Source: a virus (taxonomy: Duplodnaviria; Caudoviricetes). From it: 64,000 nt of DNA. Position numbers and translations under genes: made by a program. Below the pieces are notes generated by a model. The model saw nothing but the letters and a program-made list of their open reading frames with translations, did no database searches and was not told the DNA's origin. Each line of letters begins with the position of its first letter. Within the stretch, counting starts at the first letter, position 1. The stretch is from the IMG/VR virus record IMGVR_UViG_3300034096_000868, positions 128 through 64,127 of that record; one strand, written 5' to 3'. Shown piece by piece: positions 2,752 through 62,928 of the stretch.

Positions 2752-2962
2752 ATAAAATTAGTAGTTTTGCCAACAAACGTAAGTGATAGTGAATTAAAGA
2801 AAAAAATTATAAAGTCTTCTATAAAGGCTAAAGTCAAAAGACATTTTAATCTTTATGAATACAAATATAATTTTATCTTATCTTGCATTGAATACGTTTT
2901 GTTCTACAGATTAGAGAGAATTAGAATTAATAATATATTTAAAAACAAAAATAAGTTAAAAC

Positions 2963-3583
2963 ATGGAAGAGTTAAAAAGTACAAAAGTAAAAGCAAAAGG
3001 AAAGGTAGTGGAAATGGGAAAAAGACAAAGTGAACCAACACAGGTTGATTTAATGGTCTTACCTAGAGATTTACTAGGAAGTATTAGAGAGAACATAATA
3101 GATTTCTCAAATATGAACCGAAGTATGAAATCTAGTACTGCAAGAAAATTGCAGAAAAACATTCAAATTCTTGAATTAAATGCAAATGCATACATCAAGA
3201 AAGAAAGAGAACTAGTGGATGAATTTATCGTAGTAGAAGACGAAACGCCAGTTTGGTGGAATCAAGTTACTACTGAAAAAGTATATGAGGGCGAGGGAGA
3301 AGAAAAAAGACTTGCAGGTGGTACATTTAGAGCAAAATCTACTCCACAAGGTATGATTTTAGTAAATGCTGATAGTGAGCAATACTTTCCAAAAGAGGGC
3401 GAAGTAATGAAATACTTGCAAAAAGACATCACAAGAGAGGATGAGTATGTAGAAAAAATGAAGTCACTTCAAGGAACTCCGATTGAAATAAAAGTTATTC
3501 TTTTCACTGATGAAGAACTTAGCGACTTGAATGTGCCAACAGATTTATCATTCTTAAATATTTTTGTAGATGGAAAACAATAA
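2963..3583 (+). CDS. hypothetical protein
   Basis: 206-aa ORF with coding-like composition. Confidence 0.65.
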   Translation: MEELKSTKVKAKGKVVEMGKRQSEPTQVDLMVLPRDLLGSIRENIIDFSNMNRSMKSSTARKLQKNIQILELNANAYIKKERELVDEFIVVEDETPVWWNQVTTEKVYEGEGEEKRLAGGTFRAKSTPQGMILVNADSEQYFPKEGEVMKYLQKDITREDEYVEKMKSLQGTPIEIKVILFTDEELSDLNVPTDLSFLNIFVDGKQ

Positions 3584-4503: not shown

Positions 4504-6330
4504 TTGAGTGTAAATTACACCGACTTTTCGCCCGTTATAAAATATGGAATCCCTGATTATAAAAGGGATAGTCCACAATGGTTCTCATGGCTCGAAGAAC
4601 AATTACATTACATTCTTAACGGATATACGCATGGTGGCACTACTATCACTGGTAGGCTATATTTCAAACTAAATTTTTTCAAGATACTTCACTTAGAAGA
4701 TGGAGATAGTCGTGAAAAAATGATTAGTCCTTACTATGTAGATGCTCAAAAAGACTTATATGATTTACTTGATTACTGCTATGAAAATGAAAGAGATTTG
4801 ATAGTTGGTAAAGGTAGAGATAAAGGATTTAGTTACGATTTAGCAAATATTTCACTATACGAAACTCATTTTTTCAAGGATAATCATATCATAATGCTAT
4901 TTCCTAGTGGAACTTCTCCTGCAAAGCAACAATTCAAGAATAAGTACAAATTAGGTTGGCAACATTTACTAGATGATTTTAAGGTAGACCCTGGTCTTTC
5001 AAATAATGCTGATTTATTAAAATATGGTTGGGTTGAAACTGATGAAGAAACGGGTAGAAAAACAGAACGTGGCAATTTATCTTCACTCACTATGCTTGAA
5101 GTAGTAAATGCCGATGTAGGTAAATCTGGACGTTTTAAGGTTATGGGATTAGAGGAGTTTGGGGAGATTAAAGACCCATTAAAACTTATTCAAACATCAA
5201 GAGCGAATTTACAAAAAGGTGCTAAAAAGTTTGGTACTATCATAGCTGGAGGTACGTCAAATGCATTCAATCATGGATATAAAGATTTTAGAACTTTGTG
5301 GTTTAATCACAATGATTATGGATTTGAAAAACTATTTATCCCTGCAAATAAAGCTTTATGGGGATTTGTTAAAGAAAATGGAGATAGCGATATGGAGGGT
5401 GCTGAAAAGTGGGTACTTGATAGAAGAAAAGGACTAAAAGACGATATTCTCACCATTGAGATGCAAAATTACCCTTTAACTGAAAAGGAAATGTTTGTAT
5501 CAATCAATCAAAGTCCATTTAATACAAACTACATATCATCGCAAATAGCCGATATTATGACTAACAAGGCTATTGAAAGTCAAATTAAAACGGGAAATTT
5601 ATATAAAGATAACAAGGATGGTAGTATAAAATTTGCAGAGTGCCTAGATGGTAGATGGAAAATTTACTTGCATCCAAAGAAAGGACTTATTAATAAAGAT
5701 GTGGGTGCGGTAGATCCATACAATAAAGGCGATGGAGGACAATTTGCTACATCAAAAGGTGCAATAGTAATTTATAGACCATTTAATGGATTGAGCGAAA
5801 TCGGGAATTTGCCGATTTGCATTTATCATAATAGGCCCAAAACTAAGGATATGTTTTTTGAGGATTGCTTACTTACTGCAATGTACTATGATTGCCAATT
5901 ATTATTTGAACATCAATTTGACGATTGGGCTGATTATTTTATCAAACGTAATGCACAGAAGTATTTAAAAAATAGACCAAACTTAGTAGATAATATTTAT
6001 AGCAAAAATAACAATCAAAAATATGGAGTACCAGCAACGCATCAATCTAAAGGAACTGCAGTTGAGGTGGCTATTAGGGATTTCGATGCAAACTGGGAAA
6101 ATCATGTTTTTATTGAATTGTTAGATGAATTAAGTAACTTTGGAACGGAAAATGTGGATTTAGCTATGGCATATATTTGGGCTGTATTACACGCAGAGGA
6201 CAATATAAAAATGCTTCCAGAGTTTATGCCAAAGAAAAAAGCAAAGCCGTTTATTCCATATACAATACATAGTGGGAATAAGATGATAGTAATAAGTACA
6301 GTCGAGCAACAGAAAATGATGACACGATAA
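4504..6330 (+). CDS. terL: terminase large subunit (crAss-like type)
   Basis: Walker A-like GKGRDKGFSY, Walker B GLEEFGE, GGT coupling motif, nuclease-domain AVDPY and DLAMA; upstream of the portal. Confidence 0.85.
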   Translation: MSVNYTDFSPVIKYGIPDYKRDSPQWFSWLEEQLHYILNGYTHGGTTITGRLYFKLNFFKILHLEDGDSREKMISPYYVDAQKDLYDLLDYCYENERDLIVGKGRDKGFSYDLANISLYETHFFKDNHIIMLFPSGTSPAKQQFKNKYKLGWQHLLDDFKVDPGLSNNADLLKYGWVETDEETGRKTERGNLSSLTMLEVVNADVGKSGRFKVMGLEEFGEIKDPLKLIQTSRANLQKGAKKFGTIIAGGTSNAFNHGYKDFRTLWFNHNDYGFEKLFIPANKALWGFVKENGDSDMEGAEKWVLDRRKGLKDDILTIEMQNYPLTEKEMFVSINQSPFNTNYISSQIADIMTNKAIESQIKTGNLYKDNKDGSIKFAECLDGRWKIYLHPKKGLINKDVGAVDPYNKGDGGQFATSKGAIVIYRPFNGLSEIGNLPICIYHNRPKTKDMFFEDCLLTAMYYDCQLLFEHQFDDWADYFIKRNAQKYLKNRPNLVDNIYSKNNNQKYGVPATHQSKGTAVEVAIRDFDANWENHVFIELLDELSNFGTENVDLAMAYIWAVLHAEDNIKMLPEFMPKKKAKPFIPYTIHSGNKMIVISTVEQQKMMTR

Positions 6331-6331
6331 T

Positions 6332-8545
6332 ATGAGAAATTTTAGTAACGTAGTTCCTGCGAAAAAGGACGAACAATTACAATGGGCAAAACAAGCCATT
6401 GATGCAATAATTCTTAGTGGACAAAACTGCTATAATGAGCGAGATTTAGAAAATATCAATTACGCAAAAGGTACAGTGCCTGAAAGCGACTTTGATTATG
6501 TTACTAAATTGTACGTAAATCCTAATACTCCAGATAGAGTTTTACCAGGAAGAATCCGACAAGTAAACACTATTGCTCATTTATTGAATAAGGCTATTGG
6601 GAAATATACTAGTGAAGAACTAGACTATGTTGTTTCGGTTATCAATAAAGAGGGATATGAAGAAAAGATTGAAGAAGTTTCGAAGATTGGAGCAGAAAAA
6701 CTTGCAAGATTTGTAAGACAACAAAGTGGTATTAATGAAATTTTAGGCGCGCCTATTGACGTGCTAGATGTAATTCAGCCAGAGGATATTGAGAAAATAA
6801 AAGGTGTGGATTATTCTAAATACCAAACGGAAGCTGAAATAAATTTATCTAAAGCATTACGTTGGATATTGACTGATACCATGAAAGGTATGCAGTATAA
6901 ACTTACTAATCAATTACTTTGGAACTACTTTGTTACAGGAAAAATGGCAGTAGATATTTATAAGGGATTGGAAGACCCCGAACTAGATGTAATTCCTACT
7001 CAAAATTTAATTTATGATTTAGATAGCACAAGTCCATTTATCCATAAAGGTAGATATGCAGGATATTACTATTCAGCTACTCCACAAGAAATTATTGATA
7101 AGTGTCCAAATTTAAGCCAAGAAGATGTAGATTATCTTAATGGACTAATGGAGAACTTTGGTAATGTAGGAGCATCTGCAATGGCTAAAACGTGGAAAGA
7201 TGGATGTGATTGGTTTATTGAGCAAGATACTTTATACATTGATTGTTACAAGATTTATTTCAAAGCAATCAAATGGGTAAAATGCAAAATAACTCCTAAT
7301 AAATTAGACGAGGATAATCCTCACGTACATTTCGTTGGAGATGATGACAAGCTAAGCGCTAACGATAAGTATGAGCAAAGATGCACTAATACGGTTTGGG
7401 AGTGTACTAGAATTGCAAGTAAAATATACTACCAATGTAGAGAAATGCCTAATCAAATTGTTTCAGAAGATACTCCAAGTGAAAGAGAGTTGCCAATAAA
7501 AGGGATTATAGATGGGCTTCATCCTTGCCTTGTAGATTTATTGAAACCTTTGGAATCAATGAAGATGAATGCTTTCTTCTCTATTGATAGGCTAGTAGGT
7601 CAAGCAAAAGGTAAAATATTAATTATTGATGAAGCTACAGAGGATAACCCTTTGGATAATCACTACAATATGATGGCTTATGGAGTATACCGAGTAAATT
7701 CAGCAAAAGAGGGCGATATGCAACTTAATGGAGGGCAAATAATCCAGCCAAAAGAAATCGATATGGGATTAAGTCAGGCAGTGTCTGACTTAATGAGATT
7801 TATCCAATTCCTAGATACAAGTATGTTATTGGTAACGGGGTTAAATGAGGGATATATGGGTATTGTAAATTCAAACACTGGATTAGGCACACAACAAAAT
7901 GCCATTCAACAAGCACAAATGAGTTTATATCCATACATTTCTACATGGTATAGTGTAATTCAATCATCACTGCAAGAAGTATGTAATTTATTTCCTATTT
8001 GTTGGAAAGATTCAGATAAGGTAAAATACTACATTGGTGAGCGTGGACAAAACTTTTTCAACCTTTCAAAAGACACAAATTGGTATTTGAATAGATATGG
8101 ATTAGTAGTTCAAAATAAGCTAAAACAACAACAACAAAAGAATGTTGCGGTTCAAACTGCTCAAATGTTATTGCCAACTGTGAATGATCCAAACTTTGCA
8201 TTAGCGTTAATGAAGATGGTAAATAGCCAAAGTGCTGCGGAAGCGGAGGAAATTTTAGAGAAAGGAGTTGTGGCTATAAATAAATTGAAAGCTGAAAGTG
8301 AGAAAAACGCTATGGAGCAATCACGTATGCAACAACAAGCAAATGCTGAAAGACTGCAGATTGAATCTGAACTTGAACTCAAACGTATTAATATTCCATT
8401 AGAGGTTGAGAAATTAAAAGGAGAAAATGCTATGGCATTACAAGAGCAAAAATTACGTCATTCAGAGGATGCTCAAGATGTGAGATATAAGCAAAATATC
8501 AAGGAAAAGATTGTAGAAAAAGAATTAAATAATTCAAATATCTAA
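6332..8545 (+). CDS. portal protein
   Basis: 737 aa immediately after terL, with a C-terminal coiled-coil Q/E-rich region; size and layout as in crAss-like portals. Confidence 0.75.
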   Translation: MRNFSNVVPAKKDEQLQWAKQAIDAIILSGQNCYNERDLENINYAKGTVPESDFDYVTKLYVNPNTPDRVLPGRIRQVNTIAHLLNKAIGKYTSEELDYVVSVINKEGYEEKIEEVSKIGAEKLARFVRQQSGINEILGAPIDVLDVIQPEDIEKIKGVDYSKYQTEAEINLSKALRWILTDTMKGMQYKLTNQLLWNYFVTGKMAVDIYKGLEDPELDVIPTQNLIYDLDSTSPFIHKGRYAGYYYSATPQEIIDKCPNLSQEDVDYLNGLMENFGNVGASAMAKTWKDGCDWFIEQDTLYIDCYKIYFKAIKWVKCKITPNKLDEDNPHVHFVGDDDKLSANDKYEQRCTNTVWECTRIASKIYYQCREMPNQIVSEDTPSERELPIKGIIDGLHPCLVDLLKPLESMKMNAFFSIDRLVGQAKGKILIIDEATEDNPLDNHYNMMAYGVYRVNSAKEGDMQLNGGQIIQPKEIDMGLSQAVSDLMRFIQFLDTSMLLVTGLNEGYMGIVNSNTGLGTQQNAIQQAQMSLYPYISTWYSVIQSSLQEVCNLFPICWKDSDKVKYYIGERGQNFFNLSKDTNWYLNRYGLVVQNKLKQQQQKNVAVQTAQMLLPTVNDPNFALALMKMVNSQSAAEAEEILEKGVVAINKLKAESEKNAMEQSRMQQQANAERLQIESELELKRINIPLEVEKLKGENAMALQEQKLRHSEDAQDVRYKQNIKEKIVEKELNNSNI

Positions 8546-15911: not shown

Positions 15912-16088
15912 ATGGAAAAAGAACTTAAAGAACTTTTAAAACTCAAAGAAAACGTAGTGAGGTGGAATATGTGTGCTGAACTCGATGAAAGGCTAGGATT
16001 AGACCCAACAAAATCAAATGAAAGTGCATTGTTTTACGAAAATGAATTAAATAGTAAATTGAAAAAGATTGTTGAAGCTTATGGGTAA
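15912..16088 (+). CDS. 58-aa hypothetical protein whose stop codon forms the first TAAC of array A
   Basis: MEKELKELLKLKENVVRW...KKIVEAYG* read by hand; TAA at 16086-16088. Confidence 0.55.
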   Translation: MEKELKELLKLKENVVRWNMCAELDERLGLDPTKSNESALFYENELNSKLKKIVEAYG

Positions 16089-16159
16089 CGGTTTCGGGCT
16101 TGGCGAAGTTTGCGAAGCGTTGGCTTGTGCGGTCGGGCAAATTGCGCCAAACCCGTGTT
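16087..16159. repeat. attC-like hairpin A1
   Basis: AAC GGTTT CGGGcTTGGCG..TTTGC / GCAAA..CGCCAAaCCCG T GTT; outer arm GTTATAAGAAGTAGC pairs with GCTATTTCTTATAAC at 16468-16482. Confidence 0.85.
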
Positions 16160-16198
16160 ATAAGAAGTAGCGGTTTATTAACGATAAATTTAATTAAA

Positions 16199-16468
16199 AT
16201 GGAAATAGAAAAACAAATTGATGATTTAACCTTTGAAAGATGGAGGTTTACATTTATGTATGGAACAATATTCTTAGATGGATATTGCTTACTGCAAAAA
16301 GAAAGCAAAAGGCACAAAAATTTTAAAGTGCTGAAACAATACGATAGAATAATAGGAAGGAGTAATACAATAGTGGAAAGTGAAGTGCCTTTTACTGATG
16401 AATTAAAAGCAGAAGCATTAAATCAATTTGTTTCTACGATAAAAGTTCTTAAATGGAGCGAAAGGTAG
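16199..16468 (+). CDS. cassette A1 hypothetical protein
   Basis: ATG 16199 after an A-rich leader; the track start at 16100 lies inside the hairpin. Confidence 0.65.
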   Translation: MEIEKQIDDLTFERWRFTFMYGTIFLDGYCLLQKESKRHKNFKVLKQYDRIIGRSNTIVESEVPFTDELKAEALNQFVSTIKVLKWSER

Positions 16469-16479
16469 CTATTTCTTAT

Positions 16480-16604
16480 AACGGTAAAATAATAAAAGCA
16501 GTAGCGATATGAAAGAACAAATTGAAAATATATTGATAAAGGTTGATGAAGGCACGATGCCTGTTCAACAAGCACTAAGCGAGCTATTGCTTTTATTTAG
16601 TGTT
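16480..16604. repeat. attC-like hairpin A2
   Basis: AATAAAAGCAGTAGC / GCTATTGCTTTTATT stem; arm GTTAGCGGTTCGTTGCC vs GGCAATGACCGCTAAC (16746-16761). Confidence 0.8.
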
Positions 16605-16760
16605 AGCGGTTCGTTGCCATCTATTGACCCATTAGATGACGAGAATAGCGAAATACATAAAATAGGTAGAGAAATAGCTGAAATGTCCGATGAAGAGTTT
16701 GATAATAATTGTAAAGCAATAACAGATATGCTGTCAAGGTCGAAAGGCAATGACCGCTAA
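16509..16760 (+). CDS. cassette A2 hypothetical protein (starts in the hairpin loop)
   Basis: reads through GTTAGCGGT (VSG); stop TAA is part of the terminal TAAC. Confidence 0.6.
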   Translation: MKEQIENILIKVDEGTMPVQQALSELLLLFSVSGSLPSIDPLDDENSEIHKIGREIAEMSDEEFDNNCKAITDMLSRSKGNDR

Positions 16761-16882
16761 CGGTCAAGTGTTGCCGAAGTGGGGGATTGTTAGTACAAAA
16801 GCCCATTAAAAGCACTACTGCCGAACACAGTACAAATGTTCATTAAATGCACGTTTGCCCCCCATTTTGGCAACACTATGTT
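16759..16882. repeat. attC-like hairpin A3
   Basis: AGTGTTGCCGAAGTGGGGG / CCCCCATTTTGGCAACACT; arm GTTGGTGGTTAGTGCC vs GGCATTACCACCAAC. Confidence 0.85.
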
Positions 16883-16922
16883 GGTGGTTAGTGCCTTTGT
16901 TAAACTGATTAAATAGAAAAAA

Positions 16923-17399
16923 ATGTCAAATAGAAATTTCAGAGGTCGGGTATTTCACTACTCAAATGATTGTGGCTGGGTTTATGGCGACTTTCATAAA
17001 ATGTATGATGGTAGTTTATACCATTATATAACTACATTACCTGACTTAGACAAAGACTGGCAAACTTCATATTATAATGTAGTTGCTGATACTATTACCC
17101 AAAGTACAGGATTAAAAGACAAAGATGGTAAAGAAATATTTGAAGGTGATATTGTTAAACATAAATTTCGTAGAATATGGCAAACTAAAGAACATATTTC
17201 AACAGTTGTTTGGTGTCAAGAATATTGCTGTTATTACTTGTTTGACGGTATTTGTAACCATAGAATGAGAGATGATATGGTTTATGAAATAATTGGTAAT
17301 TTCTTTGATAATAAGGATTTGGTAAAGGGCTATCCTCCTTGTCCAAAAGTAGAGCCATCAATAACAAATAAAAACTCATCCGATGACTTGCCATTTTAG
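16923..17399 (+). CDS. cassette A3: YopX-family protein
   Basis: FRG...WVYG...QSTGLKDKDGKEIFEGDIV...YEIIGN signature. Confidence 0.85.
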   Translation: MSNRNFRGRVFHYSNDCGWVYGDFHKMYDGSLYHYITTLPDLDKDWQTSYYNVVADTITQSTGLKDKDGKEIFEGDIVKHKFRRIWQTKEHISTVVWCQEYCCYYLFDGICNHRMRDDMVYEIIGNFFDNKDLVKGYPPCPKVEPSITNKNSSDDLPF

Positions 17400-17421
17400 G
17401 GTGTCTCGTGGCATTACCACC

Positions 17422-17547
17422 AACGTTAAACGGCTTTGTGACTGTGGTGGCAATAGAATTACTACTGTTCGTTACAGCACAAATGCCAAATAGGATTACC
17501 AAAGCTGAATATCAGCACATCAGCCACCATAGCACAAAACCGATGTT
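17422..17547. repeat. attC-like hairpin A4
   Basis: CGGCTTTGTGACTGTGGTGGC / GCCACCATAGCACAAAACCG; arm GTTGGTGGCAGGTTT vs AAACTTGCCACCAAC. Confidence 0.85.
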
Positions 17548-17586
17548 GGTGGCAGGTTTTTTTCTCGGTTTACAAATTTTAAAATT

Positions 17587-18072
17587 ATGCAAGTAATAGA
17601 AGAAATAGTAAAGATTTATCAAGCCAAAGACGGCACAAAATTCAAAGACAAAGGCGAATGTCAAACCTACGAAAAAGGTATTCCGTATGGTAATTATTAT
17701 GCTAAACTTTCAAACCTTAAAACTTTTGAAGTTACTGAAAACCATTTAAAACTAATAAAAAGAAATGTTATTGAATGGGTTTTTCATAGAGACGATTATA
17801 ATGCTGGTCATTTTTACCAAGATACAAAACGACCTTATGGAAATTCTGATTGGGTTGGTGATATTGCTGAAATTTTAGGAATTGAACCCGATTGCTCAAA
17901 TCCAAATGACGAAGACGAAAAATGGTTTTCTGAAAGTTTAGAGTACTTTTTAGTTTGTCATCATATTGATATGAGAATTGTAATGGAAATACTTTGTCAA
18001 AATTTGTCAATTCACAAAGGTAAATATGAAAGAGAAAGCGTTTATTCTTCGGACTGGGTGGCGGTCGCTTAA
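17587..18072 (+). CDS. cassette A4 hypothetical protein
   Basis: 161 aa; YQAKDGTKF..K.EC..YE N-terminus and KRPYGNSD motif. Confidence 0.7.
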   Translation: MQVIEEIVKIYQAKDGTKFKDKGECQTYEKGIPYGNYYAKLSNLKTFEVTENHLKLIKRNVIEWVFHRDDYNAGHFYQDTKRPYGNSDWVGDIAEILGIEPDCSNPNDEDEKWFSESLEYFLVCHHIDMRIVMEILCQNLSIHKGKYERESVYSSDWVAVA

Positions 18073-18082
18073 ACTTGCCACC

Positions 18083-18205
18083 AACGGTTCGCAGCTATAT
18101 TTAGTTGCGGATTTAGAATCACAAATTATCAAATTAGTAATAACTTAAATAGAAAGAAAAATGTCAAAGAAACCACAGAAACCGCAATTGAATATAGCTG
18201 TTGTT
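18083..18205. repeat. attC-like hairpin A5
   Basis: CAGCTATATTTAGTTGCGG / CCGCAATTGAATATAGCTG; arm GTTAGCGGTAGTTT vs AAATTACCGCTAAC. Confidence 0.85.
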
Positions 18206-18367
18206 AGCGGTAGTTTTTATTGGGTTCGTCCGTTCCATAAAGACGAGTTTGAACCTGCTAAATGTAAAGAACTATACGGAACAGATAAGCTATATTTTTT
18301 TTTCACAAATGGAAGTCGAATGGAAGTTGAACGTGCTTGGGAAGTAGAGCCGTTAAATTACCGCTAA
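18161..18367 (+). CDS. cassette A5 hypothetical protein
   Basis: 68 aa, identical to 59758..59964; starts in the hairpin loop and stops in TAAC. Confidence 0.7.
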   Translation: MSKKPQKPQLNIAVVSGSFYWVRPFHKDEFEPAKCKELYGTDKLYFFFTNGSRMEVERAWEVEPLNYR

Positions 18368-18412
18368 CGTTTTGCGTATAAAAAATCGTTTTAATGTTTT
18401 TTATACGCTGTT
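18366..18412. repeat. attC-like hairpin A6 (shortest, 47 bp)
   Basis: AAC GTTTT GCGTATAAAAAA / TTTTTTATACGC T GTT; arm GTTAGCAGTAGTAC vs GTATTACTGCTAAC (19491-19504). Confidence 0.85.
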
Positions 18413-18507
18413 AGCAGTAGTACGGATTTAAACCGCAAATGCTCATTCGGAGAACTGAACCTTTTTATTTTCTTTTTTGAGCGAGGACAAAATATTAAAA
18501 TAAAATT

Positions 18508-19491
18508 ATGACAATAGATTTAAGATACGGAGATACAATAGAACAAATGAAATTGATACCTGATAAAAGTATTGACTTTATTTGCTGTGATTTACCTTAT
18601 GGGACAACCGCTTGTATTTGGGATATAATTATACCATTTGATAAACTTTGGAGGGAATATAAAAGGATAATCAAAGATAAAGGAGTAATTGTATTGTTTG
18701 GTAGCGAACCATTTTCATCATTATTAAGAACATCTAATTTAGAGTGGTATAAATATGATTGGATTTGGGAAAAGAATAACGCAGGGAATTTTCAATTAGT
18801 AAATTATCAACCATTAAAAATACACGAAACCATATCAGTTTTTTATAATGAAACACCTAATATGGAATTTGCTAATATTATGGTTGAAAATATGAAAAGA
18901 CTAAACTTAAAGCAAATTGATATTTCAAAATTAGAACTTTCAAGAACAGGTGGAATGACAGGTTGGGTTACAAATAAAATGAACGGTTCTCAATTACCAA
19001 CAGAACAACAATGGAGTAAAATATGTGATTTGTTTGGTATTGAAAATAAATATGACGAAATACTTTTAACTGTAAAAAAGATTACATATAACCTTGAACT
19101 TGATGATACCAAATTAGTATTATCAAATAAAGGGAAAGCTGGAACATTAGGACATCTATCAAGTGAAAGTAAAAGAGAAACATACATACAAGATAAAACA
19201 GGTTATCCAAAAAGTATATTGAAATACAATAGAGAGAATGGATTACATCCAACTCAAAAACCTATACCATTGATGGAATTTTTAATAAAGACATATTCCA
19301 ATGAAGGTGAAACTGTATTAGATAATACGATGGGTAGTTGTTCAACAGGAATTGGATGTATAAATTTGAACCGAAACTTTATTGGGATAGATAATACAAA
19401 AAAGTATTTTAATATTTCTTTAAAGAGGGTGGAAGAAAAAAGAAAAGAAAAAGATTTTAACGTAGTAACTTCATTCGGAGATGGAATGTAG
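18508..19491 (+). CDS. cassette A6: beta-class N6-adenine/N4-cytosine DNA methyltransferase with an inserted HTH-like segment
   Basis: DLPYG (motif IV), HPTQKP, VLDNTMGSCSTG (motif I). Confidence 0.9.
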   Translation: MTIDLRYGDTIEQMKLIPDKSIDFICCDLPYGTTACIWDIIIPFDKLWREYKRIIKDKGVIVLFGSEPFSSLLRTSNLEWYKYDWIWEKNNAGNFQLVNYQPLKIHETISVFYNETPNMEFANIMVENMKRLNLKQIDISKLELSRTGGMTGWVTNKMNGSQLPTEQQWSKICDLFGIENKYDEILLTVKKITYNLELDDTKLVLSNKGKAGTLGHLSSESKRETYIQDKTGYPKSILKYNRENGLHPTQKPIPLMEFLIKTYSNEGETVLDNTMGSCSTGIGCINLNRNFIGIDNTKKYFNISLKRVEEKRKEKDFNVVTSFGDGM

Positions 19492-19532
19492 TATTACTGC
19501 TAACTTCTTTATTTACGCAACAAAAACACAAG

Positions 19533-55655: not shown

Positions 55656-56565
55656 CGATTACCTATTTAGAAGCCACATGGTTGGCAATATCATTTGTTC
55701 ATCAAATCCTTTAACCGAAAACCAAAAGGCTAAATTTGAGGAACTACATCAAAGATTTATAGGTAATGGAAAGCCATTAACTCCTAACCAAGACGCAGAG
55801 TACATATCTTTACGACACAAAGACAATGAATCTAAGATTATCAAATTCACAGATACTGCAAAGAACGCTCTAGCTGATATAGTTTTTTACGAAACTACTG
55901 GCCGAAAAAACTTACTAGATATTAAGAATTTCAAAAAAGGTATTATACGCGAAAAAGAATCAAGAGATTTGCTTTCTGCAGTTGCCGGAATACTTTTTAC
56001 AAAAGATGATGAAAGACGTTCTAATCAGTGGGTAACTGGGAAAAGAGATATTAAATTTGACATTATCCTAGATATTAAAAACTCATTTAGCCTAGAATCA
56101 TTTAGAAAACATTTACTAGAAAGCACCAATGCAATATACTTAAGTCAAATGGATTGCTATATGGAGCTATGGGATAGCAAAAATTCAATAATTTGCCATT
56201 GCTTGATAGATACTCCAATACAACTTGTAAACAACGAAATTAGAGCATTATCTTACAAAGTAGATTTATATAATCCTGGTGGAGATATTTATGATGATAG
56301 AATACCCGAAGTGAAGTCTGTAATACAAAATCATATCTTTACTCGTAAAGGACTAGAAGAATATTGTCAGCAGTCTACAAATATTTTTATAGAATGGTTT
56401 GATGATTTCAAAGAGATACCAAAAGAGCAAAGGGTTCACATGATTGAGCATCCATTTAGCCAAGATAGAATTGAACAAAGAAATGAGTGTATCATTAAAG
56501 CTAGGGAGTACATGAATACAATTAAACCTACTAATAAAATTATAAATTTAAAAGATTATTTATGA
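55645..56565 (+). CDS. PD-(D/E)xK (YqaJ/lambda-Exo-like) exonuclease
   Basis: FRSH..G, G...E, G..D....DIK.S, Y..Q...YM motifs; paired with the SSAP. Confidence 0.7.
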   Translation: MDFNDYLFRSHMVGNIICSSNPLTENQKAKFEELHQRFIGNGKPLTPNQDAEYISLRHKDNESKIIKFTDTAKNALADIVFYETTGRKNLLDIKNFKKGIIREKESRDLLSAVAGILFTKDDERRSNQWVTGKRDIKFDIILDIKNSFSLESFRKHLLESTNAIYLSQMDCYMELWDSKNSIICHCLIDTPIQLVNNEIRALSYKVDLYNPGGDIYDDRIPEVKSVIQNHIFTRKGLEEYCQQSTNIFIEWFDDFKEIPKEQRVHMIEHPFSQDRIEQRNECIIKAREYMNTIKPTNKIINLKDYL

Positions 56566-56864
56566 GAATAGAATCGCAAGGCACAAAAAACTTTAAGAAA
56601 TTCATGCTTAAAGCAAAAAAAATAAATTATAGCAAGAATTTGAAAAACTTAAAAAATGAATTTAAGCTAGATGACAGGCAGTATGATTTGCTATATAGAT
56701 ACTTAATTATGGTATTTTGCAAGCCTACAATTCAAGTTTATATTGGTGGATCAGAAATACCTCATATAAAGAAGAATATTGAGAAAGCAAATCAGATATA
56801 CTTGTACGCACAAGCATTTGTTAGTGAGAATAAAATATTGCTTAATCAAGAAATAATTGATTAA
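56562..56864 (+). CDS. hypothetical protein
   Basis: 100-aa ORF, last gene before array B. Confidence 0.5.
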   Translation: MRIESQGTKNFKKFMLKAKKINYSKNLKNLKNEFKLDDRQYDLLYRYLIMVFCKPTIQVYIGGSEIPHIKKNIEKANQIYLYAQAFVSENKILLNQEIID

Positions 56865-56880
56865 CGGAGCAATTTTGCTC

Positions 56881-56997
56881 AACGTCCGAGTGCTTGGCGA
56901 AGTTGCCGAACACAAAAGTTAAACTGAAAAACAAAAGTTGAAATTATGGATAAAGTTGAATTGAAAGACGAAACGGCAATTTTGCCAAACCCGTGTT
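56881..56997. repeat. attC-like hairpin B1
   Basis: TTGGCGAAGTTGCCG / CGGCAATTTTGCCAA; arm GTTATGTGCTGGGC vs GCCTTGCACATAAC. Confidence 0.8.
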
Positions 56998-57569
56998 ATG
57001 TGCTGGGCGGTTTAAAGAAGTATTCTGTTATTTACGCTGACCCTGCTTGGAGTTACGATTTTAAAGAGCCTACTGCATCCAAAGGTGGGGCGAAAGGAAG
57101 TGGTTATTCAGCAGGTGTTAATTACTACTATGGAACAATGACAACTAAACAGATACTTGAATTGCCTGTAAAAAACATTTGCGAAAAGGATTGTGTGCTT
57201 TTTCTATGGGCGACTAATCCGCTTTTACCCGAAGCCTTAGAAACGATGAAGGCTTGGGGGTTCAAATACAAAACGATGATTACTTGGCACAAAGAACGAT
57301 GCAAAGGAATGGGATATTGGTTTCGTGGGCATACCGAACATATTTTAGTAGGGGTAAAAGGGAATGTAAAAGCGTTTCGTTCTTTGGAACACAATATAAA
57401 AAAGTTGCCCGTAGAAAAGCATAGCAAAAAGCCTGATGAATTTAGGCAAATGATTGAAGCAGTTACAGGCAATTTAGGAAATAGAATAGAATTGTTTGCA
57501 AGGAATAACCACGAGGGATGGGATGCTTGGGGAAATGAAGTAGGTTCGTCTGTCGAAGTAGGATGGTAG
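56946..57569 (+). CDS. cassette B1: MT-A70-family N6-adenine methyltransferase
   Basis: YSVIYADPAW, LFLWAT, WGFKYKT..W.K, G.GYWFRG.TEH, HSKKP, IELFAR, GWDAWGNE. Confidence 0.9.
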   Translation: MDKVELKDETAILPNPCYVLGGLKKYSVIYADPAWSYDFKEPTASKGGAKGSGYSAGVNYYYGTMTTKQILELPVKNICEKDCVLFLWATNPLLPEALETMKAWGFKYKTMITWHKERCKGMGYWFRGHTEHILVGVKGNVKAFRSLEHNIKKLPVEKHSKKPDEFRQMIEAVTGNLGNRIELFARNNHEGWDAWGNEVGSSVEVGW

Positions 57570-57579
57570 CCTTGCACAT

Positions 57580-57702
57580 AACGGTCTAGGGCTTGACGCA
57601 GGTAGGAATAGAAAGCATAATTGCTTGTTTACTTACCAATGCTGAAAAGAGTGCTAAAGCCGAATAAAGCACCAAAGCCCTACTTGCGTTCAAACCCTTG
57701 TT
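57580..57702. repeat. attC-like hairpin B2
   Basis: AGGGCTTGACGCAGGTAGG / CCTACTTGCGTTCAAACCCT; arm GTTATATGCCGTTTT vs AAAATGGCATATAAC. Confidence 0.85.
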
Positions 57703-57751
57703 ATATGCCGTTTTTATCGGCTCAAATTTTTAACTTTTAAATAATAAATAT

Positions 57752-58087
57752 ATGTCTAAAATAACACAAGAAGATTATACAAAAGCACTTGAAACTATTA
57801 AAAAATTTCAATGTCAATGCTCAAAATGCGGAACACAATTTGGTGATAGGTGGGAATGGAATGCAAATTCATTCAAACTACAATTAAATATAGATTGCCA
57901 AAGTACAGACGCTTTATTTGGCGAAAAAGCAAATGAAATAGGGTTTAATCATCCTGCAATAGAAAAAGGTGCAGGGTATCAAAGATTAACGATTTCAAGC
58001 GGTAGAGAATTGCCTTATAGACTTTGTCCATCTTGTCATAGAAAGTTTTTTCGTCTTATAGGGGACTTTCTGCAAAATGGCATATAA
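57752..58087 (+). CDS. cassette B2: Zn-finger-like protein
   Basis: CSKCG ... LCPSCH; stop codon in TAAC. Confidence 0.7.
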   Translation: MSKITQEDYTKALETIKKFQCQCSKCGTQFGDRWEWNANSFKLQLNIDCQSTDALFGEKANEIGFNHPAIEKGAGYQRLTISSGRELPYRLCPSCHRKFFRLIGDFLQNGI

Positions 58088-58176
58088 CGTGATGCGGCTT
58101 TGTGTCTGTTTGCCCCTTGCTCAAAGTTTCAAGTTATCACAAATGTTGATGGGGCAAATAGCACAAAACCGCTGTT
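58086..58176. repeat. attC-like hairpin B3
   Basis: GCGGCTTTGTGTCTGTTTGCCCC / GGGGCAAATAGCACAAAACCGC; arm GTTATAGGCAGTAGGG. Confidence 0.85.
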
Positions 58177-58227
58177 ATAGGCAGTAGGGATTTTTAGCAG
58201 AATGTTTAATTTAAAAACAAATAAAAA

Positions 58228-58665
58228 ATGAACAACTTAAAAACAAAAGAAGATAGACAAGAAGCTATCAAACAAATTGAAAAAAGTTTTTTAACTACAA
58301 TCAAAAGTAATGGGCTTGAACTTTCAGAAGAAGCTGTTTGCAGAATAAACCAAAATAGTATTGAACTTGGTATTTGTGCAATAGGAAAGTATGCTGAAAA
58401 AGGTTATCAAATGGCTTTTGCATCGGCTATTGAATTGTATGCAAAAAGCTATGATGATGAACTTGGATTTGGAAGAAAAGAAAACGAAATAAACTTTGGT
58501 AGTTCTGGTTCTTTTAATCCATCTGAACGAGAAAGTTATTGGAGAACTATACACGCTGCATCTGTATTGAAAAATTGGGATATTGTTTCAGAAATTGTAA
58601 ATACCCATTGCAAAATGTATTGTGATTTGAGCAAGAAAATCTTTGAGGTAAATGTTCAATCGTAG
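58228..58665 (+). CDS. cassette B3 hypothetical protein
   Basis: 145-aa ORF filling the cassette. Confidence 0.7.
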   Translation: MNNLKTKEDRQEAIKQIEKSFLTTIKSNGLELSEEAVCRINQNSIELGICAIGKYAEKGYQMAFASAIELYAKSYDDELGFGRKENEINFGSSGSFNPSERESYWRTIHAASVLKNWDIVSEIVNTHCKMYCDLSKKIFEVNVQS

Positions 58666-58683
58666 CACGTCTGCCCTATTGCC

Positions 58684-58805
58684 TACGTTGAGCATATACG
58701 AAGGCAGGGCTTTGAAACTCAAATGCTCGTTTACTTCCGAAAGTTTAATCAACATATAAAAGCTGAAAGTTTGCACTTCTGCCCTGCTTTTGTATATGTA
58801 TTGTT
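58684..58805. repeat. attC-like hairpin B4 (junction AAC damaged)
   Basis: CATATACGAAGGCAGGGC / GCCCTGCTTTTGTATATG; arm GTTGGCAGTAGTGCT vs AGCATTACTGCCAAC. Confidence 0.8.
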
Positions 58806-58846
58806 GGCAGTAGTGCTTTTTGTCAAACTAGAATAAATTTAAGAAT

Positions 58847-59137
58847 ATGGAATTATGTAATTTTTCAAAGGCTTGGGTTGGTAATTGTAAAAATGAAAAA
58901 CCTTGCAAAGAACACGCTGAAATTAAATGCGGTTCTTGTGGTGAGCCTGCCACAAGAGAATGTGCTGAAACTGGTCAATTTGTTTGCGGTGTTCCTCTGT
59001 GTGATAATTGTGAGCATACTATCTACGAAGATGGTACAAATGGAGGTATTGGTTTTAATCAACAACGACCACACGAAGGAATGAAGTCACATTGTAAAAA
59101 GTCAGAACAAAAATTTAAAAGCTGGTATGAGCGGTAG
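58847..59137 (+). CDS. cassette B4: Cys-rich Zn-binding protein
   Basis: multiple CxxC / CxxH motifs in 96 aa. Confidence 0.7.
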   Translation: MELCNFSKAWVGNCKNEKPCKEHAEIKCGSCGEPATRECAETGQFVCGVPLCDNCEHTIYEDGTNGGIGFNQQRPHEGMKSHCKKSEQKFKSWYER

Positions 59138-59156
59138 TGTCGGTAGCATTACTGCC

Positions 59157-59237
59157 AACGTTTTGCAGATTGGCGAAGTTGCAAAATTGCGTTGGATTTG
59201 TGCGGTGGGATTTTGCAATTTTTGCCAATGTGCTGTT
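59157..59237. repeat. attC-like hairpin B5
   Basis: GCAgATTGGCGAAGTTGCAAAAT / ATTTTGCAATTTTTGCCAATgTGC; arm GTTATCAGCAGTTCT vs AGAATTGCTGATAAC. Confidence 0.85.
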
Positions 59238-59276
59238 ATCAGCAGTTCTTTTTTCACACTTAAATAATTATCAAAA

Positions 59277-59678
59277 ATGAATACATTAAAATTAACACTA
59301 AAAAAACAATGGTTTGACCTTATCAAAGAAGGTATCAAAACCGAAGAGTACAGAGAAATAAAGCCTTATTGGTTTGAAAGATTAGTTTTTCAATATGAAA
59401 AGGCTTTTAAATATTGCACTGGATATGATTACAAGCAACAACTTTATGTAAACGAAGGAATACAACATACTCTTTCTGAAAGTAAAAAATCAATGGTTGC
59501 AATGAAACCTTTTGACTTTGTAGAATTTACAAATGGATATAATTCTACAAGCCCAAAAATCACTTTAGAGTGTCAAAATATTATAATTGGGCAAGGATTA
59601 GAAGAATGGGGAGCAGTCAAGGGCGAAAGATATTTTATAATCAAACTCGGTCGTGAGGTTGGTCGGCAGAATTGCTGA
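59277..59678 (+). CDS. cassette B5: ASCH/PUA-like domain protein
   Basis: L.L.LKKQWFDLI..G.KTEEYRE.KPYW..RL ... F.NGY ... YF.I.LG. Confidence 0.8.
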   Translation: MNTLKLTLKKQWFDLIKEGIKTEEYREIKPYWFERLVFQYEKAFKYCTGYDYKQQLYVNEGIQHTLSESKKSMVAMKPFDFVEFTNGYNSTSPKITLECQNIIIGQGLEEWGAVKGERYFIIKLGREVGRQNC

Positions 59679-59679
59679 T

Positions 59680-59970
59680 AACGGTTCGCAGCTATATTTA
59701 GTTGCGGATTTAGAATCACAAATTATCAAATTAGTAATAACTTAAATAGAAAGAAAAATGTCAAAGAAACCACAGAAACCGCAATTGAATATAGCTGTTG
59801 TTAGCGGTAGTTTTTATTGGGTTCGTCCGTTCCATAAAGACGAGTTTGAACCTGCTAAATGTAAAGAACTATACGGAACAGATAAGCTATATTTTTTTTT
59901 CACAAATGGAAGTCGAATGGAAGTTGAACGTGCTTGGGAAGTAGAGCCGTTAAATTACCGCTAACGTTTT
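59680..59970 (+). repeat. exact dispersed repeat, copy 2 (cassette B6 = A5, including its hairpin 59680-59802)
   Basis: identical by eye to 18083..18373. Confidence 0.95.
59758..59964 (+). CDS. cassette B6 hypothetical protein
   Basis: identical 68-aa translation to 18161..18367. Confidence 0.7.
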   Translation: MSKKPQKPQLNIAVVSGSFYWVRPFHKDEFEPAKCKELYGTDKLYFFFTNGSRMEVERAWEVEPLNYR

Positions 59971-60084
59971 CGGGCTTTGCGTAGTAGGGGATTAAATGCA
60001 CTACGCTTGGTCTTAGCACAAATGTTTATTAGAAGCAGATAGTTTGGTTTAGCACTATCGCCCCTATTACGCAAAGCCCGTGTT
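59963..60084. repeat. attC-like hairpin B7
   Basis: CGGGCTTTGCGTAGTAGGGG / CCCCTATTACGCAAAGCCCG; arm GTTATATGAAGGTGGG vs CCCACTTTCATATAAC. Confidence 0.9.
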
Positions 60085-60180
60085 ATATGAAGGTGGGATT
60101 TTCACGCACTACACTTAAATAGAAGCACGTAAAAAGAAAAAGAAAAAATGAGCGTGGGAAACAATTTAATTTAAACAAAA

Positions 60181-60726
60181 ATGGGAACAAGAAATTTAAC
60201 AATGGTTATTAACCAAGAAGGAGAAAAGAAAGTAGCACAATACGGACAATGGGATGGTTATCCATCTGGAGTTGGGGTAGGTGTTCTTAAATTCCTTAAA
60301 GACAAAGAGGTGTTTGAAAAATTCAAAGTCAACTTATCTAAAGTGAGATTTTTAGATGAAGAAGGTGTTGATAAGGAATTTATTGAAAGCTACAATAAAA
60401 ATGCTCCACAATGGAGCAATGAACCAGACAACAGAACCGAAGAACAAAAACGTTGGTTTTCTACTTATTGCAATCGTGATTTAGCAGAAGAAGTTTTAAC
60501 CAATATCGCCAACTCTACTGACAAAGAAATTGTTTTAATGGATAGAGAAAACACCGCAAAAGGTGATGGATGGGTAGAATATTCGTATGTTATAAACTTG
60601 AAAGAAAATACGCTTGGCGTTTATGGACACATTGACCAAGAGCCAATGAAAGTTTACAAACTTGATGAACTACCTGAAGAAGATGTTTTCGTTTCTGAAT
60701 TGGAAGGAGTTGAAGAAGAAGATTAA
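60181..60726 (+). CDS. cassette B7 hypothetical protein
   Basis: MGTR......QY.QWDGYP.G.G ... EY.YVI.L motif pattern seen in phage hypothetical proteins. Confidence 0.75.
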   Translation: MGTRNLTMVINQEGEKKVAQYGQWDGYPSGVGVGVLKFLKDKEVFEKFKVNLSKVRFLDEEGVDKEFIESYNKNAPQWSNEPDNRTEEQKRWFSTYCNRDLAEEVLTNIANSTDKEIVLMDRENTAKGDGWVEYSYVINLKENTLGVYGHIDQEPMKVYKLDELPEEDVFVSELEGVEEED

Positions 60727-60800
60727 AAAGAGCGTGGGCGGATTTTTTCTTTTTCTTTCTCACGAAAGTTCAATCGAAGCACGTCTGCCCACTTTCATAT

Positions 60801-61033
60801 AACGGCATTGGGCTAAACGCAGTAGGGGTTTCCTACCTGTAAAGATGGAATGGCAGACAATTCAAGTTTAACTTTGTTCTTGATTGTTTGGACGACATCC
60901 CCCTATTGCGTTTTAACCCATGTTATAAGTCTGGTGGCGGGGCGTAGTGATTAAGGTAACAATAAGGGCAGAGTAAACTGCACAAACCCTAAATTAAATC
61001 CACTACCATTAATGCCCGCCACTTGCTTATAAC
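60801..61033 (+). other. cassette B8: ORF-less cassette with hairpin 60801-60924
   Basis: TGGGCTAAACGCAGTAGGGG / CCCCTATTGCGTTTTAACCCA; arm GTTATAAGTCTGGTGGCGGG vs CCCGCCACTTGCTTATAAC; no ATG-initiated + strand ORF over about 25 codons seen. Confidence 0.75.
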
Positions 61034-61116
61034 GGTTGGGTGTATGAGAAGGTTTGCTTGTAGAAACTTTCAAATTACAACTGAACTTAATAGCAAACTT
61101 TCTTATACACTTTGTT
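61031..61116. repeat. attC-like hairpin B9
   Basis: GTGTATGAGAAGGTTTGCT / AGCAAACTTTCTTATACAC; arm GTTATGTGTTGTTTT vs AAAATGACACATAAC. Confidence 0.85.
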
Positions 61117-61143
61117 ATGTGTTGTTTTTAAATTAAATAAAAT

Positions 61144-61371
61144 ATGGAAACAGGAAATTTAATTAAATCAACCAATTTCAACACAACACCATATTGGGTT
61201 GTAAAATGTGATAATTCAAATTTAATTGGTAATAGAAATGGTGAATTACCAATAGACCCTTTGAGTTTTAATTTTCATCCTTGGTCTATCTTAGAAAACA
61301 GAACGGTTAAATTTGAATTGGTTGAAATTGGTAGTGATGATAGATTGAAATGGTATGCTCGTCTAAAATGA
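61144..61371 (+). CDS. cassette B9 hypothetical protein
   Basis: 75-aa ORF whose stop lies in the terminal arm. Confidence 0.65.
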   Translation: METGNLIKSTNFNTTPYWVVKCDNSNLIGNRNGELPIDPLSFNFHPWSILENRTVKFELVEIGSDDRLKWYARLK

Positions 61372-61376
61372 CACAT

Positions 61377-61452
61377 AACGTTTTGCAGATAAGCGAAGGC
61401 ACAAATAGCGTTGGCTTTAGCGAGGAATTTGGGCTTTTGCTTATGTGCTGTT
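61377..61452. repeat. attC-like hairpin B10
   Basis: GCAgATAAGCGAAGGC.CAAAT / ATTTG.GCTTTTGCTTATgTGC; arm GTTAGCAGTAGGTTT vs AAACTTACTGCTAAC. Confidence 0.85.
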
Positions 61453-61497
61453 AGCAGTAGGTTTTTTAACTAATTATAAATTTAAAATAAATACAAA

Positions 61498-61731
61498 ATG
61501 GAAAATCAAGAAGTATTAAAATTCACTTGGAAAAAAGGAATTAAAGAAGTAAAACCTGCACACCCAATGGTTCAAAATTGGATGTTTACAGAAGAAACAG
61601 AAGAACAAGCAAGTTTAGCACATTATATGGCTGTTGTTGCTGAAAAGAATGGATTAACGGCAAATGATTTGCAACACTTATTCCCTGCTGTCCTTCGGAT
61701 GTTGAAAGATAGTTCAGCGTGGTCTAAGTAA
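61498..61731 (+). CDS. cassette B10 hypothetical protein
   Basis: 77-aa ORF filling the cassette. Confidence 0.65.
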   Translation: MENQEVLKFTWKKGIKEVKPAHPMVQNWMFTEETEEQASLAHYMAVVAEKNGLTANDLQHLFPAVLRMLKDSSAWSK

Positions 61732-61741
61732 ACTTACTGCT

Positions 61742-61795
61742 AACGTGTATATGTATTCAATACTCACAATTTATTAATAATCAAAAATATATATT
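61742..61795. other. candidate attI-like primary insertion site
   Basis: last AAC of array B, not followed by a hairpin, 51 bp before the integrase ATG. Confidence 0.55.
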
Positions 61796-62629: not shown

Positions 62630-62631
62630 AA

Positions 62632-62928
62632 ATGAAACTAGCAAAACCAACAACTGCACTAACAGAGGTGCTTTATGAACTGCTCACAAAGAAAAGTATA
62701 AGCAATGCAGATTTGCCTTATATGTGGGGTTTCCGTTCAAGAATAAGCAATTTAACTACTAAGTATGGTATTCAGTTAAATTCTACTATGATAACTGCTA
62801 AAAATAAGCATGGTAGAGCTTATTCATACGTACAACATCAGTTAATGAAAAGAAAAGATGCTTTAAAAACCTATAATAAACTTATAGGAAATGAAAAAAA
62901 AGAAATTATCAAATATTTTAAAAAATAA
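62632..62928 (+). CDS. winged-HTH DNA-binding protein
   Basis: VLYELL...SIS.....FRSRISNL...GI.L pattern. Confidence 0.55.
   Translation: MKLAKPTTALTEVLYELLTKKSISNADLPYMWGFRSRISNLTTKYGIQLNSTMITAKNKHGRAYSYVQHQLMKRKDALKTYNKLIGNEKKEIIKYFKK

Follow-up and report, generated by a model that had tools for sequence, protein, structure and literature searches.

Why should one small gene occur in exactly the same version at two places of a phage genome where the neighboring genes are different? The question is raised by a stretch of 64,000 of the 64,127 bases of the IMG/VR virus record IMGVR_UViG_3300034096_000868 (positions 128 to 64,127, referred to below as the window), a single viral record of the Caudoviricetes that IMG/VR classes as linear and for which CheckV gives a completeness of 61%. 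Two arrays of small + strand genes with imperfect hairpins between them are found in it, array A (16087–19504, six cassettes) and array B (56881–61744, ten cassettes), and the segment 18083–18373 of the first is identical to 59680–59970 of the second. The original prediction, made from the letters alone, took this for a recently moved unit of a system that is probably active. We regard it as quite likely that these 291 nucleotides (nt) mark one cassette of an integron-like system borne by the phage, moved or copied between the arrays by site-specific recombination at the triplet AAC, the likely catalyst being a tyrosine recombinase of 277 amino acids (aa) encoded beside array B.

The duplicated cassette and its ends

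The identity was recovered over 291 nt at 100% by MAFFT alignment, by a repeat finder (family D1, two copies with a spacing of 41597) and by direct string comparison, which gave 0 further identical bases on the left and 0 on the right, just as had been predicted. A repeat of this kind is not a chance event, because the second-longest direct repeat in the window reaches only 74 nt at 70%. On the left the flanks read cttgccacc|AAC in copy A and attgctgat|AAC in copy B, and on the right both copies continue as CCGCTAACGTTTT, followed by g in one and by c in the other. The neighboring cassettes differ as well, A4 and A6 (the latter with an N6_N4 methyltransferase) in the case of copy A and B5 (ASCH-like) and B7 in that of copy B. 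Counted from one AAC up to but excluding the next, the unit measures 283 nt, and forms cassette A5 (18083–18365, + strand) in one array and cassette B6 (59680–59962, + strand) in the other, so that arrays lying 41.6 kb apart share one cassette pool. The 5-nt overhang GTTTT past the second AAC is a coincidence, both successors starting with AACGTTTT, which was read at the start of four cassettes among the 16 of the window (A6, B5, B7 and B10). In 10 other downstream contexts found elsewhere (see below) the divergence sets in immediately after AAC. Taken by itself, the identity of the two copies would place the crossover anywhere in the shared AACGTTTT; this refines the original prediction, the assignment to AAC itself coming from the wider contexts.

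An exact repeat in short-read assemblies might also be a single cassette, collapsed or chimeric, that was placed in both arrays. De Bruijn contigs do stop exactly at the repeat ends, and no listed contig contains B5, B6 and B7 in one piece, a point that counts against our own explanation as much as for an artefact. We placed on positions 56500–62700 the contigs of four metagenome runs (X1 to X4, X1 being possibly the source sample), leaving read joints with sides of 20–22 nt out of the evidence and not counting as absence the parts of the stretch that had no contig cover in X2–X4. The repeat forms a contig of its own in X1, exactly 291 nt long (59680–59970) and with a depth of 26.7, versus 13.0 (56778–59709) and 12.6 (59941–61158) in the contigs at its flanks, the pattern that a two-copy repeat leaves in a de Bruijn graph. 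Record 3 of X1 and record 28 of X4 run from B5 for 30 nt into B6, and since the X1 contig enters the repeat without an earlier branch, B6 lies directly after B5 in that sample. The junction of B6 and B7 is contained in record 13 of X2 (59680–61056) and in record 29 of X4 (59680–60258), and an X4 contig ending at 59680 carries the last 30 nt of A4, i.e., the A4-A5 junction, which appears in the same context in an independent record (G001). The cassette is also present in a contig of X3 (record 22, 1570 nt) with other flanks. Both copies are real: an assembly artefact, which the original prediction had named as an outcome that would overturn it, is made improbable by contig depth and junction contigs, and we give it next to no credence.

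Anatomy of the cassettes

In both arrays the first element is a hairpin and the last a gene with a bare AAC behind it. Each spacer opens with a variable arm and AAC, continues with about 5 unpaired nt, a stem of 12–23 bp, a loop and the returning stem, and closes with 1–2 nt, GTT and a second variable arm. The triplets of array A are found at 16087, 16480, 16759, 17422, 18083 and 18366, followed at 19502 by the terminal one, which has no hairpin, and those of array B at 56881, 57580, 58086, ca. 58686 (degenerate), 59157, 59680, 59963, 60801, 61031 and 61377, with the terminal AAC at 61742 (all on the + strand). Between AAC and GTT the 16 sites span 47–126 nt, and all of them form a stem with an internal loop that is asymmetric; they are imperfect palindromes of variable length with paired AAC and GTT boxes, like the attC sites of integrons, of which these paired boxes are the signature. 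Within each unit, the arm following GTT is the reverse complement of the arm preceding the next AAC over about 14 nt. In 10 of the 16 units these terminal arms have a G.T pair at position 11 as their sole mismatch, five more units contain an indel, and B3 has a degenerate end. On the other strand this conserved pair would become C.A.

The attC-like site of A5 (18083–18216, + strand, with the arm) folds as DNA over 123 nt with −12.3 kcal/mol: AAC at 18083, some 6 unpaired nt, a long imperfect stem, the GTTAGCGG box at 18203 and then the 3′ terminal arm. This arm, GTTAGCGGTAGTTT, pairs with the cassette end AAATTACCGCTAAC at 13 of 14 positions, with the G.T at position 11. A short local stem without a GTT box (18092–18110) had been considered as the cassette hairpin and was dropped, the fold showing instead a long hairpin whose 3′ arm is coding. 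The gene that follows is an open reading frame of 68 aa (18161–18367 in copy A and 59758–59964 in copy B, + strand, identical DNA), whose ATG lies in the hairpin loop, so that the 3′ stem arm and the GTTAGCGG box fall within the coding sequence, and whose stop codon TAA overlaps the boundary AAC of A5 and A6 (18366–18368). The hairpin thus stands upstream of its gene, as had been proposed. In two relatives of the cassette (L118 and L121) the stem has undergone a compensatory change, C to G and G to C, by which CAGCTATA/TATAGCTG became CAGGTATA/TATACCTG at the cost of an alanine-to-proline replacement in the 68-aa protein, suggesting that at this position the structure of the DNA outranks the sequence of the protein. 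The ratio of non-synonymous to synonymous substitution rates (dN/dS) of the gene was 0.12–0.23 against 8 relatives, which points to purifying selection; the values for L009 and L119 (0.47 and 0.56) were discarded, having been computed without a gap alignment. Neither the 68-aa protein nor most of the other cassette products had a match in Pfam or PHROG. In three contigs (L007, L008 and L010, ca. 2890–3215) a 70% identical homologue is preceded by a promoter-like AT-rich region instead of a hairpin and followed by AAC and a hairpin. There it is the resident gene heading an array, and the family thus exists both as resident gene and as cassette.

Two peculiarities of array B were seen along the way. 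In B8 (60801–61030, 230 nt) the hairpin site of 124 nt and the matching arms at the ends are present, yet there is no open reading frame of at least 50 aa; it is an empty or non-coding cassette. The junction of B3 and B4 (58680–58692) has no AAC, reading GCCTA-CG where GCCTATAACG is expected, and the two were probably fused into one immobile unit. As for ways of detecting the sites, the motif TAACGTTTT with one mismatch was tried and abandoned, as it is not enriched in the window (33 matches versus 39 expected), and a crude site scan of the window gave 22 matches on the + strand and 6 on the − strand, with 4–13 in shuffled sequence, only the matches with a score of 12 being specific to the arrays.

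The same cassette in other contexts

If AAC is the end of the unit, the same ends should recur wherever the cassette is found. We located relatives of the 68-aa protein in 10 IMG/VR contigs and a 24-nt word of the cassette in 8 metagenome contigs, and merged those of the same context before counting (copy A of the window with L001, upstream only; L002 with L003; L004 with L123). Over these loci the cassette has 12 distinct upstream and 12 distinct downstream neighbors. The upstream neighbors end in GCCACC, GCTGAT, GCGCAC, TGATT, GCCGCT, ACCGAT, GCAGGT, ACACAT, CCCTAT, GTGCCT, GCCCAT and GCCACT, and in all contexts the likeness extends from AAC to CCGCTAAC, or to CCGCTAAT in L002 and L003 (CCGCTAA(C/T)). 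The unit is therefore mobile as a discrete block with the predicted ends, and homology running past AAC, the second finding that would have spoken against the prediction, was not seen. The base preceding AAC varies (C or T), as does the one following the terminal AAC (G, A or T), indicating a crossover within the triplet or at its edges. The AAT of L002 and L003 hints at a third base derived from the downstream partner. A triplet crossover and discrete units in different contexts are also what defines the cassettes of integrons. In three contigs (L009, L119 and L122) no stem was seen in the sequence after the cassette, as expected of a terminal one.

The generality of these ends was assessed by an all-against-all comparison of the fetched loci and the two arrays (at least 93% identity over at least 150 nt), that gave 38 unique internal left ends of homology and 40 right ends. 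Seventeen of the 38 left ends lie 0–2 nt from an AAC common to both partners, when about 2 would be expected from base composition (an estimate); four more are 4–12 nt upstream of AAC, inside shared terminal arms, and 16 of the 40 right ends are at AAC (by reading). The remaining ends are mostly outside arrays. Among the contigs L157, L159, L160 and L162 several units of 287–340 nt are 99–100% identical and stand in different order.

These data bear on two other ways in which the duplicate could have arisen. The segment could have been copied from array to array without a site-specific enzyme, by homologous recombination or gene conversion making use of the stretches of similarity that exist between hairpins of different cassettes (e.g., those of B5 and B10), and hairpin cores do re-assort relative to the genes (see below), but a flanking identity of 0 nt on the left and of 5 nt past AAC on the right is too little for homologous exchange. 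The exact ends are moreover repeated in the 12 + 12 unrelated contexts, and the clustering of homology ends at AAC is found in other arrays too, so that we take this explanation to be very unlikely. The second possibility is the classical polarity, with the crossover at G|TT of the 3′ box and the hairpin owned by the upstream gene, which accounts for the complementarity of the terminal arms equally well as AAC boundaries do and is in line with the homology breaks at the GTT box of B5 and B7 described below. However, it predicts identity over 18204–18410, when it is observed over 18083–18373, the arrays open with a hairpin and close with a gene and a bare AAC, and none of the 78 unique homology ends of the comparison falls at the GTT box of a site. 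The probability that we assign to it is minimal.

Turnover of arrays between near-identical phages

The claim of recent movement in a system that is still active implied that close relatives should differ in their cassettes, and two of them do. The record G001 (33.8 kb, whose cover excludes array B) matches the window over 1–30162 at 96.7–99.2%, being 100% identical over 16000–18369 and 96.8% from 19501 on. The last unit is the sole difference in its array A, where the 1136-nt A6 gives way to a unit of 717 nt that has a hairpin of its own and encodes an MT-A70 methyltransferase. The swap is bounded by CCGCT|AAC (AAC at 18366) on one side and by |AAC TTCTTTATTT (AAC at 19502) on the other. In G002 (41.3 kb, whose cover excludes array A) the recombinase protein is 100% identical to that of the window and the flanks of array B are so at 94.9% and 99.4%, the 4855 nt of the window being exchanged for 1791 nt of unrelated cassettes. 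The likeness stops at 56884 and resumes at 61740, which corresponds to the first and the last AAC of the array. Cassette content is thus turned over at AAC, in one phage at the terminal position and in the other along the whole array, and this part of the original prediction is borne out.

The recombinase and its linkage to the sites

Immediately after array B there is a gene for a 277-aa tyrosine recombinase of IntI-like or Xer-like type (61796–62629, + strand; PF00589 and PF13495), that starts 54 nt after the last AAC and is the sole PF00589 match in the record. The sequence between, AAC GTGTATATGTA... (61742–61795, + strand), is an attI-like junction whose motif is conserved in related loci. 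The protein misses all NCBIfam cut-offs, with scores of 194.5 vs. 220 for XerA_Arch, 182.7 vs. 329.6 for XerD and 177.6 vs. 335 for XerC, i.e., it does not score as a Xer dimer resolvase above an equivalog cut-off. With the IntI models it gives 156.9 bits (TIGR02249, cut-off 265) and 96.4 (PRK15417, cut-off 435), both matched in two pieces. In the alignment with IntI4 of Vibrio cholerae (2a3v), residues 191–207 of the query face residues 191–252, so that about 45 residues are missing, those of the IntI-specific insertion; the additional domain (helix I2 insertion) by which integron integrases are recognized is absent. The ...SPL... tail at the C-terminus matches IntI4 in the alignment, but not the Xer structures.

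Relatives of the recombinase in deposited phages reach at most 36% identity, and bacterial genome contigs gave just two distant matches (26–30%). At least 120 protein clusters of 272–318 aa (nearly all 276–282) have at least 47% identity to it. A profile built from 21 of the clusters retrieved 443 viral stretches, and we kept 80 loci with relatives of 41–100% identity. These were scanned for sites (AAC, 4–7 nt, a 12-bp stem in which one mismatch was allowed, 0–3 nt, GTT). Upstream of the recombinase we found 204 matches in 229 kb on the same strand versus 34 in 229 kb on the other, and downstream 33 in 293 kb on the same strand and 33 in 293 kb on the other. Two or more same-strand matches were present upstream in 47 of 59 loci (those with at least 1500 nt upstream) and downstream in 8 of 74. 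The recombinase family and the arrays are therefore linked. Of 56 loci in which the N-terminus is complete and the upstream DNA extends for 120 nt or more, 52 have a junction of the form AAC-N3-6-AT[AC]T[AG] within the last 120 nt before the start codon, versus 1 of 56 in a control window, although the motif was defined only after the sequences had been viewed, which weighs against the strength of this result. The distance from the attI-like AAC to ATG was 53–56 nt in 38 loci and 70 nt in 11 (together 49 of 56).

As a side observation, the junction AAC-N3-6-ATATG(T)A before the recombinase is a candidate docking site, and it is missing at the end of array A (19502).

The units with a hairpin near one end might alternatively be moved by some other hairpin-recognizing machinery, an IS200/IS605-like HUH transposase or a host enzyme, the phage recombinase serving for dimer resolution or integration. 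Like the units described here, elements of the IS200/IS605 type have a subterminal hairpin and are inserted beside a short word of fixed sequence, the recombinase scores best against Xer models, and a tblastn search with it found no relative in the fetched DNA of the loci carrying the cassette. Set against this, a Y1 HUH transposase (Y1_Tnp, PF01797) had no match in the 64,127-nt record (61% complete), when control genomes were matched. The sites are also enriched ca. 8-fold upstream and on the same strand of the recombinase family over the 80 loci, the AAC junction stands at fixed distances of 53–56 or 70 nt from the start codon, and the paired AAC...GTT boxes are those of attC. Such a machinery appears unlikely to us.

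A proposed mechanism and what weighs against it

In the site-specific exchange that we favor, the recombinase would bind the folded hairpins and exchange strands within AAC at the 5′ edge of the hairpin. The unit would be excised as a circle, in which its two arms pair perfectly, and re-inserted either at a hairpin-less junction or at another hairpin. The enzyme is taken to be the 277-aa recombinase, that from its place beside the attI-like end of array B would also serve array A in trans, its substrate is presumed to be the folded single-stranded DNA of the + strand, and the cut would fall inside AAC. Expression of the cassettes must depend on phage promoters located before the arrays, because the genes read towards the recombinase with the hairpin before each gene. 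Since G001 and the window share A1–A5 and differ only after A5, this cassette was probably the terminal one in their common ancestor, and for this reason copying from B6 to A5 is the favored direction, with the later and separate arrivals of A6 and of the unit of G001.

Several observations weigh against this explanation, apart from the missing contig across B5-B6-B7 and the late definition of the attI-like motif. The connection between recombinase and sites is one of sequence association, there is no recombinase gene beside array A, and since the record is 61% complete, the rest of the genome may encode another such enzyme. At the end of array A, the terminal junction (AAC TTCTTTATTT) has no TATATG motif as seen beside the recombinase genes. 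Neither copy is terminal at present, so that extra events or an insertion of the attC x attC type must be assumed. The + strand fold is the more stable one in just 11 of the 16 sites (mean −1.6 kcal/mol; Wilcoxon p = 0.006 with 15 unique sites) and the two strands of the A5/B6 site tie at −12.3 kcal/mol. Further exceptions come from breaks of homology at the GTT box, which an exchange restricted to AAC leaves unexplained. The hairpin of B5 (59157–59235) is identical to that of L019 (2884–2961) at only 60 of 78 positions (77%), versus 446 of 449 (99.3%) from GTT to the end, and the gene of B7 (region 59963–60082) with its GTTATATGAAGG box is 91–93% identical in L037 and L036, the three contigs having three unrelated hairpins. 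These cases indicate that hairpin cores and gene bodies have separate histories and re-assort, which could occur by rarer events on the other strand or by homologous exchange between similar hairpins.

A related kind of sharing was noticed between cassettes with different genes. A1 (16146–16205) is 91.7% identical to the unit of G001 (L001, 3278–3337) over the 3′ half of the hairpin and the leader down to the start codon, and L178 and L183 have 161 nt of hairpin and leader in common (94%). A hairpin and leader common to different genes hints at how new cassettes may be built.

Comparison with known systems

Classical integrons (IntI/attI/attC, such as those of class 1 or the chromosomal one of V. 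cholerae) and the phage system have much in common. Both consist of arrays of mostly single-gene units without promoters, separated by imperfect hairpins with AAC and GTT boxes; the cassette ends pair and the crossover is in the AAC/GTT triplet. In both, a hairpin-less site adjoins a tyrosine recombinase of the IntI/Xer branch with a C-terminal SPL, and the cassette content changes between near-identical genomes. In the classical case the folded bottom strand of attC is cut 5′-AA|C, this strand being antisense to the cassette genes. The phage version differs in a recombinase of 277 aa that lacks the insertion of ca. 45 residues and stays below the IntI cut-offs, and in its mirrored polarity, the hairpin being upstream of the gene and AAC on the coding (+) strand. 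All the cassette genes read towards a co-directional downstream recombinase, the terminal arms of about 14 nt have their fixed G.T, and the system is carried by a phage, in which a second array lies at a distance of 37 kb. The arrangement of integrons, with attC downstream of each gene and transcription away from intI from Pc, is not the one found here. The system thus works like an integron yet has neither the IntI insertion nor the attC-after-gene layout, two features that belong to an integron in the sense of IntegronFinder.

Other systems share part of these characters. The “inverted integrase” integrons (Treponema denticola and others) have a true IntI upstream of the array and attC downstream of each gene; the integrase is co-directional with the cassettes as here, although in our case the recombinase follows the array and each hairpin stands before its gene. 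The dif modules of Acinetobacter plasmids are also small gene modules with Xer-type sites that occur in many contexts, and they use XerC/XerD at 28-bp double-stranded pdif sites of alternating orientation, unlike the 47–126-nt hairpins and the terminal docking site described above. In T4-type phages, mobile regulatory cassettes known as PeSLs, said to have been described by Arbiol and colleagues in 2010, reportedly consist of a promoter and stem-loop repeats and are thought to move by homologous exchange. They would resemble the present case in having a stem-loop before small shuffled phage genes, and differ from it in having no AAC/GTT boxes and no recombinase.

The published phage cases are orphan attC clusters (CALINs), and no published account of a phage array accompanied by a recombinase of its own was found, supplements aside. 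According to the available sections of Qi et al. (2023; PMC9892861), such clusters exist in phages and their sites were recombined with IntI1. One of them, in the Polaribacter phage P12002L (with a Bacteroidota host), has two methyltransferases and “divergent directions” of its sites. There too attC-like sites are found in virulent phages with DNA methyltransferase cassettes, but those sections describe no dedicated phage recombinase, unit boundaries or inverted geometry. Array A, with no recombinase gene nearby, would formally fit a CALIN, but the recombinase is encoded in the same genome, next to array B. We lean, with some reserve, towards the broader view that phages of freshwater hosts of the Bacteroidota type run an integron class of their own, characterized by a 277-aa recombinase without I2, hairpins on the coding strand, docking at an attI-like site 54 nt before its own gene, a second array served in trans, and a trade of accessory genes, DNA methyltransferases in particular, faster than point mutation.

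The duplicate cassette acts as a natural experiment that ties both unit ends to a word of three bases and reveals on which side of the gene the site travels, giving base-level resolution of a little-described phage-borne integron variant. Together with the swaps in the two near-identical phages, it leads from static attC-like repeats to evidence of ongoing gene capture by viruses. It raises the question of whether folded single-stranded sites can be handled by a plain recombinase of Xer size, given that the IntI-specific domain is thought, in the available part of Smyshlyaev et al. (2021; PMC8138268), to be essential for integron recombination. If phages do run an integron class of their own, the I2 insertion would be dispensable for recombination at hairpin sites, and gene capture of the integron type would not be restricted to cells. 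The arrays would also offer a possible route by which phages exchange anti-restriction methyltransferases together with many genes of little-known function.

The phage genome and its other variable spots

The window has a G+C content of ca. 31% and carries the genes for a large terminase subunit (4504–6330) and a portal protein (6332–8545), both recognized by PHROG matches. A DNA search with these two genes found no match among deposited phages, and the sequencing runs that contain the phage are nearly all lake-water metagenomes. Rfam at gathering thresholds gave no match anywhere in the window, and the attC-like sites are covered by no Rfam family. ARAGORN found no tRNA either in the window or in the array of G002, the first unit of which (ca. 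60–200) has in its first hairpin loop two GGTTCGA(T/C)TCC words that resemble tRNA T-arms. Outside the arrays, two other variable spots were detected. Both G001 and G002 have ca. 1.16 kb of extra sequence after the portal gene (window 8523–8545), and the segment 11106–12091 of the window is replaced in G001.

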